Below are positions 4,090 to 49,297 of a DNA stretch of 64,000 nt, in pieces (position 1 is the stretch's first letter; each line of letters starts with the position of its first letter). The stretch lies in NCBI GenBank assembly GCA_031422495.1, contig JANPLX010000100.1:197-64196 (forward strand), given 5' to 3'. Made by a program: the position numbers and the translations under genes. The notes beneath the pieces were generated by a model, which saw only the letters and a list, made by a program, of their open reading frames with translations, was not told the DNA's origin and did no database searches. This DNA comes from Polaromonas sp. (GTDB lineage Bacteria; Pseudomonadota; Gammaproteobacteria; Burkholderiales; Burkholderiaceae_C).

Positions 4090-4338
4090 GCTGTGCCGCT
4101 CCCCCTGTCCTTGGTACCTGAGAGATTCACAGAGAGCCAGTTGGCATTCTGTTTGCTCCTTCGGTGCAAGTCATGCGTTAACACTGATCGGTGATGACGC
4201 TACTTGGCTCTCCAGACGGCTTTTAAAAAGGTGCAGTACATCACCCAAAATTGACGTAGGTCAATTTTATGGATACCTGAGCGTTCATGGGAGTTTGCGC
4301 CTTCGGTGGCATAGTTAGACTATGCTCTCTCCTGCAAA
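4090..4338 (-). promoter_or_regulatory. Tandem glycine riboswitch (two aptamers) on the minus strand, upstream of the dadA-like gene
   Basis: Aptamer 1 (fwd 4271-4338), read on the reverse complement: GCAGGAGAGAGCAUAG-UCUAA-CUAUGC-CACCGAAGGCGCAAAC...CGCUCAGGUAUCC. Aptamer 2 (fwd 4096-4220): GUCUGGAGAGCC...GCACCGAAGGAGCAAAC...AAUCUCUCAGGUACCAAGGACAG. These are the glycine-riboswitch hallmarks: GGAGAG, CACCGAAGG(G/A)GCAA and CUCUCAGG..AAGGACAG. A U-rich tract (fwd 4066-4078) follows. Confidence 0.8.
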
Positions 4339-4384
4339 ATCAATTGTAGTATAAATTTAGACGTTGAAATAATAAACAAAAGGA

Positions 4385-11413: not shown

Positions 11414-12346
11414 ATGTCATCATTAGTAATCGCCGAACACGACAACGCTAGCATCAAGCCCGCCACTCTTAACACCGTTACTGCTGCATTGCAGTGTGGT
11501 GGTGATGTGCACGTGCTGGTCGCTGGCTCTAACGCAGCCGCTGCCGCTGCAGCCGCCGCACAAATCGCTGGCGTCACCAAAGTATTGCACGCAGACGACG
11601 CTGACTTAGCACATGGCTTGGCAGAAAACGTCGCTGCCCAAGTGTTAGCGGTCGCTTCCAACTACTCTCACATCTTGTTTCCCGCAACGGCCAGCGGCAA
11701 AAACGTCGCGCCTCGCGTGGCTGCCAAATTGGACGTGGGTCAAATCTCTGACATCACCAAAGTTGACAGTCCTGACACATTTGAGCGCCCGATTTATGCA
11801 GGTAATGCGATTGCAACCGTGCAAAGCTTGGATGCCATTAAAGTATTAACCGTTAGAACTACTGGATTCGACCCAGCCGGCGTAAATAATGCCTCAGTAG
11901 CTATTGAAACTGTAGCAATTCAAGCTCCAAGTGCTCAATCTACATTCATGGGCAGCGAGATTGCGAAGAACGACAGACCTGAGCTAACAGCAGCCAAAAT
12001 CATCGTCAGCGGTGGCCGTGCTTTGGGCAGTGCAGAGAAATTCAACGAAGTGATGACCCCACTGGCAGACAAACTGGGTGCAGCCATGGGCGCATCACGA
12101 GCTGCCGTTGATGCCGGTTATGCACCCAACGATTGGCAAGTTGGCCAAACCGGCAAAATTGTTGCCCCACAGTTGTATGTGGCTTGCGGCATCAGCGGCG
12201 CGATTCAGCATTTGGCGGGCATGAAAGACTCCAAAGTCATCGTCGCCATCAACAAAGACGAAGAGGCGCCGATTTTCTCGGTGGCTGACTACGGTCTGGT
12301 GGCAGATTTGTTTACCGCCGTGCCTGAGTTGGTTGCGGCTCTGTAA
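11414..12346 (+). CDS. etfA: Electron transfer flavoprotein alpha subunit
   Basis: 310 aa with C-terminal PQLYVACGISGAIQHLAGMKDSKVIVAINKDEEAPIF. Confidence 0.95.
   Translation: MSSLVIAEHDNASIKPATLNTVTAALQCGGDVHVLVAGSNAAAAAAAAAQIAGVTKVLHADDADLAHGLAENVAAQVLAVASNYSHILFPATASGKNVAPRVAAKLDVGQISDITKVDSPDTFERPIYAGNAIATVQSLDAIKVLTVRTTGFDPAGVNNASVAIETVAIQAPSAQSTFMGSEIAKNDRPELTAAKIIVSGGRALGSAEKFNEVMTPLADKLGAAMGASRAAVDAGYAPNDWQVGQTGKIVAPQLYVACGISGAIQHLAGMKDSKVIVAINKDEEAPIFSVADYGLVADLFTAVPELVAAL
11872..11922 (-). repeat. Composite repeat copy embedded in frame in the etfA inter-domain linker
   Basis: cccagccggcgtaaataatgcctcagtagctattgaaactgtagcaatt versus copy G tctagccggcgtatttattgcctacagcgctattaaaaatatagtaatt. 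This is about 70% identity by eye, with the same spacing between core and palindrome. It encodes ...PAGVNNASVAIETVAI.... Confidence 0.65.
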
Positions 12347-29964: not shown

Positions 29965-30022
29965 GTATGTATCTAGCCGGCGTATTTATTGCCTACAGCG
30001 CTATTAAAAATATAGTAATTTG
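29961..30022 (-). repeat. Composite repeat, copy G, starting at the xdhC stop codon
   Basis: ttaagtatgtatCTAGCCGGCGTATTTATTGCCtacagcGCTATTAAAAATATAGtaatttg. Confidence 0.85.
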
Positions 30023-31318: not shown

Positions 31319-31329
31319 AATTTGAGGTT

Positions 31330-31388
31330 GCTATATTTTTAATAGCAATACAGGCAATAAATATGCTGGCTAACGGCGTATTACAGTG
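31330..31388 (+). repeat. Composite repeat, copy H
   Basis: GCTATATTTTTAATAGCaatacaGGCAATAAATATGCTGGCTAACGGCGTATTacag. Confidence 0.8.
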
Positions 31389-46090: not shown

Positions 46091-47053
46091 ATGCTCTACA
46101 AACGCAACCCCCAACTAAATAAAAACGGTGAACTCATCCACTTGCTGTCGATTGAGGGATTGCCCAAAGCAACGCTGACGCATATTTTAGACACCGCAGC
46201 CAACTTCGTTTCAGTCAACGACCGCGAAGTTAAAAAAGTCCCGCTCTTACGCGGTAAAAGTGTTTTTAACCTGTTCTTTGAAAACTCCACCCGCACCCGC
46301 ACGACTTTTGAGATTGCCGCCAAGCGCCTCAGCGCCGACGTCATCAACCTCGACATCGCACGCTCATCTGCCTCCAAAGGCGAGTCCCTGCTAGACACCA
46401 TTGCCAACCTCAGCGCCATGGCTGCTGATTTGTTTGTGGTGCGTCACAGCGAATCCGGCGCTCCTTATTTGATCGCCCAGCATGTCGCGCCGCACGTGCA
46501 TGTGATTAACGCTGGAGATGGCAGACATTCGCACCCGACGCAGGGTTTGCTGGACATGTTCACCATTCGGCACTACAAAAAAGACTTTTCTAACCTTACC
46601 GTCGCCATCGTAGGCGACGTATTACATTCGCGTGTTGCTCGGTCAGATATTCATGCTTTAACAACGCTGGGCTGCGCCGAAGTGCGCGTGGTTGGCCCCA
46701 AAACCTTGGTTCCTAGCGACATGGCGCAAATGGGTGTTCGCGTCTGCCACACCTTGGAAGAGGGCATCAAAGACTGCGACGTCGTCATCACTTTGCGCTT
46801 GCAAAGCGAGCGTATGACGGGAGCGCTGCTGCCCAGTAGCCAAGAATTCTTCAAAAGCTACGGCCTGACGCAAGACAAACTGCAGCTCGCCAAGCCAGAC
46901 GCCATCGTCATGCACCCAGGGCCGATCAACCGGGGCGTCGAAATCGACTCTGCCGTGGTTGACGGCCAGCAAAGCGTGATCTTGCCGCAAGTGACCTTCG
47001 GCATCGCTGTGCGCATGGCGGTGATGAGTATCGTTGCCGGTAATGACGCCTAG
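46091..47053 (+). CDS. pyrB: Aspartate carbamoyltransferase catalytic subunit
   Basis: 320 aa with [17 protein letters not shown] and HPGP motifs. Confidence 0.95.
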
Positions 47054-47098
47054 ACAGATGCTTAAAAAATATAAAAAGACGCATAAAAAAGAGAAGCT

Positions 47099-48406
47099 AT
47101 GAATATCCTCATTAAAAATGGCCGAGTCATCAATCCAGCCACAGGATTTGATGAAATATGTGACATAGCCGTTGAATCACCTCATGTTATAGCTATTAAA
47201 AATATAGCGAAAAACTTCACACCTGATACAACGATTGACGCCACAGGCTGCATCGTCACTGCTGGTTTTGTTGATTTGGCGGCACGTTTACGCGAGCCTG
47301 GCCATGAGCACGAGGGCATGCTGCAAAGTGAGCTGGCCGCTGCAGTGGCTGGTGGTGTGACTAGTTTGGTTTGCATGCCAGACACTGAGCCGGTATTGGA
47401 CGAGCCCGGTTTGATCGAAATGCTCAAATTCCGCGCTGAAAAGCAGCACCAATCGCGTGTTTTCCCGCTAGGTGCGCTCACTGTGAATCTCAAAGGCGAA
47501 GTGTTGACCGAGATGGTCGAGTTGTCCGAAGCCGGCTGCGTGGGCTTTAGCCAAGCAGAAGTTCCTTTAGAAAACACCCAAGTGCTACAGCGCGCTTTGC
47601 AATACGCCAGCACCTTTGGCTACACCGTGTGGCTGCGCCCGCAAGACATCCATTTGGGCAAAGGCGTCGCTGCCAGCGGCGCTTTGGCTACGCGGATGGG
47701 TTTAAGTGGTGTTCCCGTCGCGGCAGAAACAATTGCGTTGCACACGATTTTTGAGTTGATGAAAGCGACCACAGGCTCCCGCGTGCATATTTGCCGCATC
47801 AGCAGCGCTGCAGGCGTGGCACTCGTGCGTCAAGCCAAGGCAGATGGCTTGTTGGTCAGCTGCGATGTGAGTATTAACTCACTTCATTTGACTGACATCG
47901 ATATGGGCTACTACGACAGCCGCGCTAGGCTCAACCCACCCCTGCGCCAGCAGCGCGACCGCGATGCCCTGCGTGCGGCCTTGGTTGACGGCACGATTGA
48001 CGCCTTGGTATCCGACCACACGCCGGTTAGCGACGACGCCAAAACCTTACCTTTCGCCGAAGCCGAAGCCGGTGCTACTGGTTTGGAGTTGCTGCTCAGC
48101 CTCGCCCTCAAATGGCAGTCAGAAAGCAGCGACAAAACGCTGACTTTGGCCAATGCACTCGCCACCATCACCAGCCAACCTGCCAAAATATTGGAGGCCA
48201 ATTTGGGCGCTGAGTACGCCAGCTTGGGCCAATTGGTTGTGGGCGGCGTTGCCGACATTTGCATTTTCGACCCCAAAGCGGCTTGGACTGTTTCCTCAAG
48301 CAGCTTGCGCAGCCAAGGCAAACACACGCCATTCGTGAGCTACGAGCTGCCCGGCAAAGTGGTGGCCACCATCGTGGCTGGGCATGTGGCTTTTGAAGCG
48401 AAGTAA
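47099..48406 (+). CDS. Dihydroorotase-like protein (PyrC'/PyrX type, partner of PyrB)
   Basis: 435 aa. It is a dihydroorotase (DHOase)-family fold directly after pyrB. The first metal motif reads GFVDLAARL instead of the usual HxH, as in non-catalytic PyrC'. Confidence 0.8.
   Translation: MNILIKNGRVINPATGFDEICDIAVESPHVIAIKNIAKNFTPDTTIDATGCIVTAGFVDLAARLREPGHEHEGMLQSELAAAVAGGVTSLVCMPDTEPVLDEPGLIEMLKFRAEKQHQSRVFPLGALTVNLKGEVLTEMVELSEAGCVGFSQAEVPLENTQVLQRALQYASTFGYTVWLRPQDIHLGKGVAASGALATRMGLSGVPVAAETIALHTIFELMKATTGSRVHICRISSAAGVALVRQAKADGLLVSCDVSINSLHLTDIDMGYYDSRARLNPPLRQQRDRDALRAALVDGTIDALVSDHTPVSDDAKTLPFAEAEAGATGLELLLSLALKWQSESSDKTLTLANALATITSQPAKILEANLGAEYASLGQLVVGGVADICIFDPKAAWTVSSSSLRSQGKHTPFVSYELPGKVVATIVAGHVAFEAK
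47164..47209 (-). repeat. Composite repeat copy in frame near the pyrC' N-terminus
   Basis: catagccgttgaatcacctcatgttataGCTATTAAAAATATAGcg. It has 16 nt identical to copy G, and ctcatgt plus the core remnant align with copy J. It encodes ...IAVESPHVIAIKNIAK.... Confidence 0.65.
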
Positions 48407-48450
48407 GTCATTTCTGGTACTTAACTTGCCGATATTGCTTGAAAGTATTG

Positions 48451-49185
48451 ATGTCTCAACTGCGCGCCTTCGGTAAATTGTGCTTATTCATTCCTCATCT
48501 TGTGTGGGGAATTTTCAGTATTTACGTCATATTTCCCAAGTTAAATCAAACTCAAAAAAACAAACGGATTGAGGCTTGGGCCGGTGCATTGCTTGCCAAG
48601 CTTGCTATTAAATTAGTAGTAAAAGGCAACCCACCCACCACAGGCCCGGTACTTTTGGTCTCTAACCATATTTCGTGGCTAGATATCTTGGTCATGCATG
48701 CGTCTAAACATTGCCGCTTCGTCAGCAAAGCAGACGTCAAGCATTGGCCCATTTTGGGTGCCTTGGCGACTGGTGCTGGCACCTTGTACATAGAGCGCGA
48801 GTCTAGGCGCGATGCCATGCGAGTCGTGCATCACATGTGCGAGGCCTTGCAAAATGGCGAGATTTTGGCAGTTTTTCCAGAGGGGACAACGGGCAATGGC
48901 ATTGAGATGCTCCCCTTTCACGCCAACTTGCTGCAAGCCCCCATCGTCTGCAACATACCCGTTCAGCCACTGGCGTTGCGCTATTTAGACCCCCAATCCG
49001 GCCAAACCAGCCAAGCTATGAGCTACGTGGGCGATGAAAGCCTGCTTGACTCGTTGTGGCGAACTTTGAAAGCCAAAGGCGTGATAGCCCAAGTTACCTA
49101 CGGCGAACCCCAATCGTCAAATGACCGAACCCGCAGAATGTGGTCGGATGATTTGAGGGGGGAGATTGAGCGCCTTAAAGCTTAA
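48451..49185 (+). CDS. plsC: 1-acyl-sn-glycerol-3-phosphate (lysophospholipid) acyltransferase
   Basis: NHISWLD (Hx4D) and FPEGTT motifs. The ORF track starts at TTG 48439. Confidence 0.85.
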   Translation: MSQLRAFGKLCLFIPHLVWGIFSIYVIFPKLNQTQKNKRIEAWAGALLAKLAIKLVVKGNPPTTGPVLLVSNHISWLDILVMHASKHCRFVSKADVKHWPILGALATGAGTLYIERESRRDAMRVVHHMCEALQNGEILAVFPEGTTGNGIEMLPFHANLLQAPIVCNIPVQPLALRYLDPQSGQTSQAMSYVGDESLLDSLWRTLKAKGVIAQVTYGEPQSSNDRTRRMWSDDLRGEIERLKA

Positions 49186-49202: not shown

Positions 49203-49267
49203 ATTTTTAGGTGTTTTTAGGCTCTAGTCGGCGTATTCATTGCTCATGTAGCTATTTTTTTTATAGC
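49203..49267 (-). repeat. Composite repeat, copy J
   Basis: tttttaggCTCTAGTCGGCGTATTCATTGCtcatgtaGCTATTTTTTTTATAGC. Confidence 0.8.
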
Positions 49268-49297
49268 ATTTTGTGTGTAAAATGTTCGGGTGAGACA

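Follow-up and report, generated by a model that had tools for sequence, protein, structure and literature searches.

We report that pyrC', a dihydroorotase-like gene of Polaromonas sp., contains within its codons a 17-nt palindrome, GCTAT-TAAAAAT-ATAGC, which is also one module of a repeat dispersed in hundreds of copies through the same genome. The gene lies in a 64,000-nt stretch of DNA (hereafter the window; positions 197 to 64,196, forward strand, of contig JANPLX010000100.1 in assembly GCA_031422495.1, our contig C100) from a Polaromonas metagenome bin of 3.03 Mb and 50% GC. The site appears to be a solo palindrome written over native pyrC' codons, not the remnant of an eroded whole element. 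Taken as a whole, the evidence is best explained by a palindrome that was overprinted on the gene without change of length and was then kept at the level of DNA, an account that we regard as probable. Three positions are central to it:

47099-48406 (+): pyrC', dihydroorotase-like and predicted to be of the inactive type, 435 aa, a full-length intact open reading frame (ORF).
47192-47208 (+): the solo palindrome GCTAT-TAAAAAT-ATAGC, codons 32-37 of pyrC', an exact match to copies of the repeat family.
47164-47191 (+): a segment that an earlier note on this DNA claimed as an eroded repeat core and spacer; native pyrC' coding sequence, D-I-A-V-E-S-P-H-V-I.

The repeat family is recognized by a 20-nt core, TAGCCGGCGTATTTATTGCC, which occurs 429 times in the genome with at most two mismatches. 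A profile for nhmmer built from these 429 copies describes an element of ~72 nt and detects 631 copies at E<1e-5 and 672 at E<1e-3. The element is laid out as a left arm and GC core, a spacer, and then the palindrome GCTAT-N7-ATAGC at one end; it is thus a two-hairpin composite in which the palindrome is one module. A 5-bp stem and a variable, A/T-rich loop of 7 nt make up the palindrome, and 332 of its 362 occurrences in the genome fall within family copies. TAAAAAT is the commonest loop (37/362), and the 17-mer GCTATTAAAAATATAGC is the modal variant of the AT-loop palindrome. Partial copies in genes were left-truncated in 13 cases and right-truncated in none, thereby keeping the palindrome end, and partial copies outside genes kept the palindrome in nine cases and lost it in two. 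Variation in the palindrome stem (452 copies) was too scant for covariation to tell a hairpin from a double-stranded binding site. The copies in the window that bear most directly on pyrC' are:

29974-30018 (+): copy G, an intergenic full copy, with the identical 16-mer at 30000-30015.
31328-31372 (-): a family copy with the identical 16-mer at 31331-31346.
49217-49269 (+): copy J, intergenic, with a CTCATGT spacer.

The earlier note had linked pyrC' to the family through a 16-mer, GCTATTAAAAATATAG, at 47192-47207, and we found this 16-mer to be identical both to that of copy G and to that of the reverse-strand copy at 31331-31346. Adding the next C turns the 16-mer into the 17-nt palindrome. 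The link is therefore upheld, since the site is an exact palindrome with the modal loop; the number of matches with two or fewer mismatches expected in shuffled sequence was 0.01. Of the 44 occurrences of the 16-mer in the genome, only that in pyrC' lacks a recognizable core alongside it, two further sites (on contigs C139 and C191) adjoining partly eroded cores.

The codons at the site, GCT ATT AAA AAT ATA GCG, encode A-I-K-N-I-A. As the earlier note had surmised, they do not alter the length of the protein: we found no indel relative to more than 60 pyrC' orthologues, to which the first 70 residues align ungapped, including the palindrome-free orthologue of genome L007. Because there is no extra DNA relative to these relatives, the pyrC' site is not an inserted element. 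The remainder of the anatomy first proposed for the site did not survive. The profile aligns only at model positions 49-71, that is, over the palindrome, and with E=3; by eye, 5 of 20 core positions match. TAGCCG, which stands at the distance expected of a trace of the core, results from GAC-ATA-GCC-GTT, codons for a D-[L/I]-A-[V/I] motif that every orthologue conserves; orthologues whose genomes lack this core have the motif too. The supposed match to the ctcatgt spacer of copy J is displaced by 3 nt: in copy J, CTCATGT ends 1 nt before GCTAT, and in pyrC' the distance is 4 nt. Moreover, CTCATGT is found at pyrC' only in the window and in the 96%-identical L001 orthologue, the other palindrome-bearing orthologues having TCTAAAGT or GGTCGTAT. 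The segment 47164-47191 as a whole gave no profile alignment, and each of its codons has a homologous counterpart, with no gap, in orthologues from core-less genomes. Of the marks of a composite repeat, the pyrC' site thus has the palindrome, with neither an adjoining core nor extra DNA relative to an empty site.

It had also been suggested that a beta-hairpin of the protein was here replaced by a foreign peptide. The alignments indicate otherwise: A-I belongs to an ancestral GRIVAIG motif, K-N-I-A occupies the place of G-x-x-P/A in relatives, and Aquifex dihydroorotase has GK-IKKIDKNI at this position. The peptide AIKNIAKNF reads as an ordinary one for dihydroorotases, within the normal variation of the family.

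The evidence for a force at the level of DNA comes from silent sites in pyrC' genes collected from species-representative genomes. The palindrome is letter-identical in nine species (the window, L001-L006, L012, and L017; 79-96% protein identity), with flanking codons varying freely. The 17-mer is the longest invariant nucleotide run in the nine-way 1.3-kb pyrC' alignment, and the run ends exactly at the palindrome borders. Across this codon alignment, 19% of the amino-acid-conserved degenerate codons are invariant. Within the palindrome, silent sites were invariant in 5/5 cases, compared with 3/22 outside it in codons 1-47 (Fisher p=7e-4; p=3e-4 when tested against codons 1-70). AT bias alone does not explain this invariance, because adjacent I, K, N, and A codons change among AT-rich synonyms in the same nine genomes.

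Solo palindromes are also commoner in the genome than codon usage predicts. GCTAT-N7-ATAGC occurs 15 times outside family copies, and each of the other spacings from N3 to N12 occurs 0-4 times. The peptide A-I-x-x-I-A in long ORFs is encoded with GCT...ATA in 6 of 24 instances, against 0.67 expected from codon usage (GCT 25.5%; ATA 10.9% of Ile codons; binomial p=4e-5), and against 3 of 154 instances for five control spacings of the A-I / I-A peptide (p=2e-4). With 6 observed and 0.67 expected, about nine in ten solo palindromes would not be accidents of codon choice. Among them the pyrC' palindrome is the best conserved, and these results together point to a DNA-level force shaping this segment of the gene.

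Three observations were made on other peptides of this kind. A-I-x5-I-A peptides use GCT...ATA in 3 of 36 cases and are the sole control spacing with any such use, which may point to a second preferred spacing (GCTAT-N16-ATAGC) or to modules in tandem. At a solo site in Dxr (C66:1514; loci L132-L147), within a helix A-[I/L]-E-x-I-A, almost all of the 17 genomes retain the stem codons GCT and ATA, including 5 of 7 GC-rich genomes, in which ATA is rare, and G002 has AIKNIA (GCTATAAAAAATATAGC). At a solo site in NadE, A-I-K-D-I-A (C14:2598; loci L117-L131), the nine repeat-rich genomes including the window yielded four GCT...ATA, three GCG...ATC, and one mixed version. Both the GCT/ATA and the GCG/ATC variants retain a perfect 5-bp palindrome, and these codon pairs could have arisen by compensatory change or could simply follow the GC content of the genomes.

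The distribution of the repeat across Polaromonas shows that the palindrome is more widespread than the core. High core counts (131-538 copies) mark the genomes of L001-L007, L012, and L017, which a pyrC' tree that omits the N-terminus groups as a supported clade. L007 lies within this repeat-rich clade and has AIGHAG (GCCATCGGTCATGCCGG) at the site; it differs mainly in a ~21-nt patch, with 12-14 differences in 21 positions against a background of 15-19% (p ~1e-5 to 1e-7). L016 and L019 form a separate clade with 0 and 13 core copies, respectively, and have GCTATTAAAAACATTGC and GCTATTAAAAGCATTGC at the site, versions that are 14-15/17 identical to the palindrome. Genomes of both carry relics of both purL repeat copies, indicating that the repeat is ancestral to these genomes, and their pyrC' versions are best read as silent-site decay after the repeat was largely lost. 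According to the earlier note, the involvement of the repeat would be called into question by an orthologue sharing the 16-mer in a genome without the family. L016 comes partway, since it has GCTATTAAAAACATTGC and no core copies, but its genome still holds 93 palindromes in addition to the purL relics.

The palindrome GCTAT-N7-ATAGC itself was present in 37-370 copies in each of 16 Polaromonas genomes tested, compared with 1-5 for a reversed control pattern, and in Polaromonas genomes without this core it adjoins other, diverged GC hairpins. As the palindrome is abundant even in core-less genomes, it is the conserved module of a genus-wide Polaromonas repeat superfamily, of which the core TAGCCGGCGTATTTATTGCC is a lineage-specific part. 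Relatives that a core-pattern search had marked as 'family-less' were dropped from that category, a palindrome-pattern search having found palindromes in them.

Copies lying in genes were called by a codon-model screen, which required a long ORF with coding-like flanks on both sides. By this measure 183 of 672 copies (27%) lie in coding-like long ORFs, with hosts including an acyl-CoA synthetase (ACS), PurL, HrpA, an ABC exporter, and an M16 peptidase. Of the six possible frames, two (+0 and -1) account for 104 of the 127 near-full coding copies (+0: 48; +1: 3; +2: 6; -0: 5; -1: 56; -2: 9). Both read the palindrome as GCT-ATx...ATA-GCx, or A-I-x-x-I-A. The earlier note had seen a hint that only one frame of this orientation is tolerated and had suggested a comparison of frame use with stop-codon content. 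A strong genome-wide preference for one frame per orientation was indeed found, but stop codons do not account for it: in 326 clearly non-coding copies, frames were stop-free at 17% (+0), 1% (+1), 28% (+2), 14% (-0), 13% (-1), and 1% (-2), and frame use in genes departs strongly from this expectation (chi-square p=1e-36). The frame that is most often stop-free, +2, which would encode a Cys/Arg/Ser-rich peptide, is rarely used in genes. This suggests that the preference is due to the encoded peptide and not only to stops.

The pyrC' site shares frame +0 with a copy in etfA, as had been observed before, and with a copy in a neighboring acyltransferase gene:

11873-11919 (+): etfA copy, model positions 25-71, frame +0, 47 nt collinear with the profile (nhmmer E=1.8e-7).
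48580-48623 (+): acyltransferase copy, in a plsC/olsA-like gene at 48439-49185; model positions 28-71, 33/44 identity to the consensus, frame +0 (AGALLAKLAIKLVVK).

These two copies are likewise without effect on length. The etfA orthologues are all 310 aa (15/15), with the ancestral state found in G011 and G014, and in a relative a near-palindrome, GCTATTGAAGTGGTAGC, was already in place before a core-like stretch of 24 nt arose upstream of it. The acyltransferase copy, which consists of half of the core, the spacer, and an imperfect palindrome, aligns ungapped to relatives with no length change, and its ancestral state, too, can be seen in relatives. It is present in all eight other repeat-rich genomes covering the gene (L001-L007, L012), and its silent sites are invariant in 5/9 cases compared with 14/110 outside the copy (p=0.005). 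The three overprints (47 nt in etfA, 44 nt in the acyltransferase gene, and 17 nt in pyrC') have the palindrome end in common and start at model positions 25, 28, and 49. True insertions exist as well: copy 2 in ACS lengthens the protein by 16-20 aa, and the PurL copies bring a net gain of 10-11 aa. ACS copy 1 sits in a replaced segment with a net change of -5 aa.

We propose that at pyrC' the palindrome overwrote native codons of a variable loop that follows the GRIVAIG hairpin, leaving the length unchanged, in the one phase in which the palindrome reads as A-I-x-x-I-A, a peptide that is tolerated. The overprint may have been a short patch, gene-conversion-like or made by template switching, for which one of the hundreds of copies elsewhere in the genome served as template and the palindrome as anchor. 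The tract copied would be variable in length, and the same process could have written the 44-47 nt into etfA and the acyltransferase gene, with selection retaining only in-frame, length-neutral products. Later upkeep might come from selection on the DNA, if the palindrome acts both here and in the repeat as a signal (a protein-binding site or a hairpin), or from recurrent correction by dispersed copies.

Several points weigh against this account. A tract of 17 nt is short for RecA-type conversion. The peptide AIKNIA in AT-rich codons allows only about two loop variants, which makes the exact identity of the 17-mer less striking, and K-N is also found here in L009 (SLKNTL) and in Aquifex (IKKIDKNI), such that the peptide could arise by ordinary substitution. 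The NadE solo palindrome drifts among the same genomes. The patch test on L007 is suggestive at most, being confounded by the loop's place as the fastest-evolving part of the protein, and all genomes compared are metagenome bins or drafts. Lastly, the analysis of the pyrC' site turned up neither a binding protein nor a promoter, a terminator, a stable RNA fold, or an Rfam family: a promoter and terminator scan of 46900-47500 gave no match, the fold of 47150-47230 was no better than that of shuffled sequences (z=-0.46), Rfam searches of the whole window and of the local region returned no family for the repeat or the site, and the PyrR RNA-binding consensus does not match it.

A broader view, which we put forward tentatively, is that GCTAT-N7-ATAGC is a genus-wide functional DNA signal, a putative protein-binding or hairpin site for uptake, repair, replication, or chromosome organization, that is carried by repeats and would enter genes by length-neutral overprinting.

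Among the alternatives to copying from the repeat, the one that fares best, although we think it unlikely, is a molecular drive like that of uptake signals or HIP1. Putative machinery would favor the palindrome, which would arise by point mutation and codon choice, and pyrC' would have reached it stepwise from x-[I/L]-K-N-x-x. The abundance of the motif throughout the genus, whatever core accompanies it, fits this well, as do the spacing-specific codon bias at A-I-x-x-I-A, the indel-free solo sites in pyrC', NadE, and Dxr, and the retention of GCT and rare ATA in GC-rich Dxr genes; the L016 and L019 versions could be intermediates. Such a drive, however, does not easily account for the 44-47-nt overprints in the etfA and acyltransferase genes, stretches that also take in the core, a lineage-specific and fast-evolving module. 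Many full copies add residues, as in ACS and PurL, and the NadE site drifts freely, both of which also tell against it.

It is less probable still that the palindrome is an accident, in which an ordinary AIKNIA loop, written in the AT-richest codons of an AT-drifting 5' segment, happens to spell it and owes its constancy to common descent and codon preference. In favor of this, AIKNIA is a normal peptide in this family, codons 1-47 are 36% GC with each site codon at or near its AT-richest form, and ~0.67 such palindromes are expected in the genome. Yet the excess over that expectation is specific to one spacing, and chance is disfavored at p ~1e-3 to 1e-4. The variation of neighboring I/K/N/A codons among AT-rich synonyms in the nine genomes, the rarity of ATA among Ile codons, and the end of the invariant run exactly at the palindrome borders are equally awkward for it. 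Finally, although full copies are translated in many genes here (ACS, PurL, HrpA, the ABC exporter) and ACS copy 1 occupies a replaced segment, we can give hardly any credence to a ~70-nt element having been inserted in frame in pyrC', its core having decayed and compensating deletions having restored the length, a reading already contradicted by the zero length difference from every orthologue, the native codons in place of the supposed core, a profile match confined to the palindrome, and the other explanations of TAGCCG and CTCATGT.

An overprint from the repeat, our preferred account, can be compared with several known systems. Rickettsia palindromic elements (RPE) are dispersed palindromic repeats that lie in intact coding genes, are translated in frame, and constitute insertions that add peptide (PMC10969869). 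The Polaromonas family resembles them in that ~27% of its copies lie in frame in long coding-like ORFs, and pyrC' likewise stays in frame despite the palindrome. In contrast to RPE, the pyrC' site adds no residues and consists of the 17-nt module only, and the etfA and acyltransferase copies are length-neutral too. In P. naphthalenivorans CJ2, an unexplained motif, ATAGCT(N)22CAAAAG, has been described in 125 copies, 81% of them intergenic and 14% in genes (PMC5217627). It contains the ATAGC half of the palindrome but is a statistical motif pair only, and that study presents no analysis of coding copies, frames, or silent sites. From the shared ATAGC and the genus-wide palindrome counts, the CJ2 motif may well belong to the present family.

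The Polaromonas palindrome also has much in common with short signal motifs. The DNA uptake sequence (DUS) of Neisseria, the uptake signal sequence (USS) of Pasteurellaceae, and cyanobacterial HIP1 are short motifs over-represented hundreds of times, conserved across a genus, and found in genes without indels, where they show biases of frame and codon choice and fall in poorly constrained protein segments. Strong over-representation across the genus and occurrence in coding DNA without indels, with frame and codon bias, were both observed here. The Polaromonas motif differs in that it usually belongs, as one module, to a two-hairpin element of ~72 nt whose core is lineage-specific, and in the longer collinear pieces found in genes.

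Repetitive extragenic palindromic (REP) sequences and their BIME composites, which are associated with RAYT transposases, are abundant short, modular hairpin repeats, mostly intergenic. The Polaromonas repeat is likewise abundant, short, modular, and mostly intergenic, and the genome has one single-copy Y1-transposase gene; REP hairpins are GC-rich, whereas the Polaromonas palindrome has a 5-bp stem and an AT-rich loop. The transposase gene is:

C89:10981-11685 (-): Y1-transposase gene (PF01797), RAYT-like, 235 aa, the only one in the genome.

We rejected this gene as the mobilizer of the family, since the repeat that stands in inverted orientation on its two sides is a different one (AATTGGGGTCAGATT..., AATTGGGGTCAGATTCTAATTAAT). 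A single family copy lies near it, 14 nt downstream, so the family does not flank it on both sides in inverted orientation.

Repeat sequence within genes is already known, and the palindrome-only, length-neutral overprint in pyrC' is a variant of that, more telling as part of a wider overprinting pattern. Repeats in working genes are usually described as tolerated insertions; here a piece of a repeat appears to overwrite codons without change of length, with silent sites fixed across species. DNA-level forces, whether templated correction or selection on a DNA signal, would in this case override codon drift and help to determine the amino-acid sequence of a housekeeping protein. In these genomes, sites of this sort make purifying selection look stronger than it is and may mislead dN/dS and codon-usage analyses. 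The pyrC', etfA, and acyltransferase genes together could serve as a tractable system for the spread of short repeats by conversion instead of transposition and for the role of a conserved palindrome. If the genus-wide signal proves true, a DNA-level drive would dictate codon choice, and even the peptide A-I-x-x-I-A, in dozens of housekeeping genes, with pyrC' as the cleanest solo example.

The host gene has one close neighbor upstream:

46091-47053: pyrB, ending 45 nt before pyrC'.

The pyrC' product matches NCBIfam NF005791 over its full length with 666 bits (cut-off 442). It has lost the HxH metal motif, with VDLAARLREPG in place of IDIHVHLRDPG in Aquifex dihydroorotase (3D6N), and is predicted to be an inactive-type dihydroorotase-like partner of PyrB, its catalytic inactivity being read from this motif. 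The low GC content of codons 1-47 (57% in the remainder of the gene) belongs to a longer dip spanning the pyrB-pyrC' spacer and these codons (47054-47240, 34-38% GC). This dip was seen in every palindrome-bearing pyrC' orthologue (0.35-0.49) and was weaker in orthologues without the palindrome.

Other translated repeats were observed in the genes that host full copies. In purL (C105:16175-20332; loci L108-L116), the linker between the synthetase and glutaminase parts is a repeat hot spot in which the translated repeats differ by genome. The types found there are the present ~72-nt family, VIPAQAGIH...RLRGND, and PLPLGEGRGEG, and the shortest, apparently empty state is in G009. In the ACS gene (C18:43562-45328), a second, unrelated translated repeat encoding SVRPEPVEGLRK is inserted, which is absent in G003 and G005; the same unrelated repeat adjoins a family copy in HrpA (hrpA, C110). 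The only Rfam matches found were tandem glycine riboswitch aptamers at 4095-4344 (-) in the window (RF00504, 53 and 40 bits).

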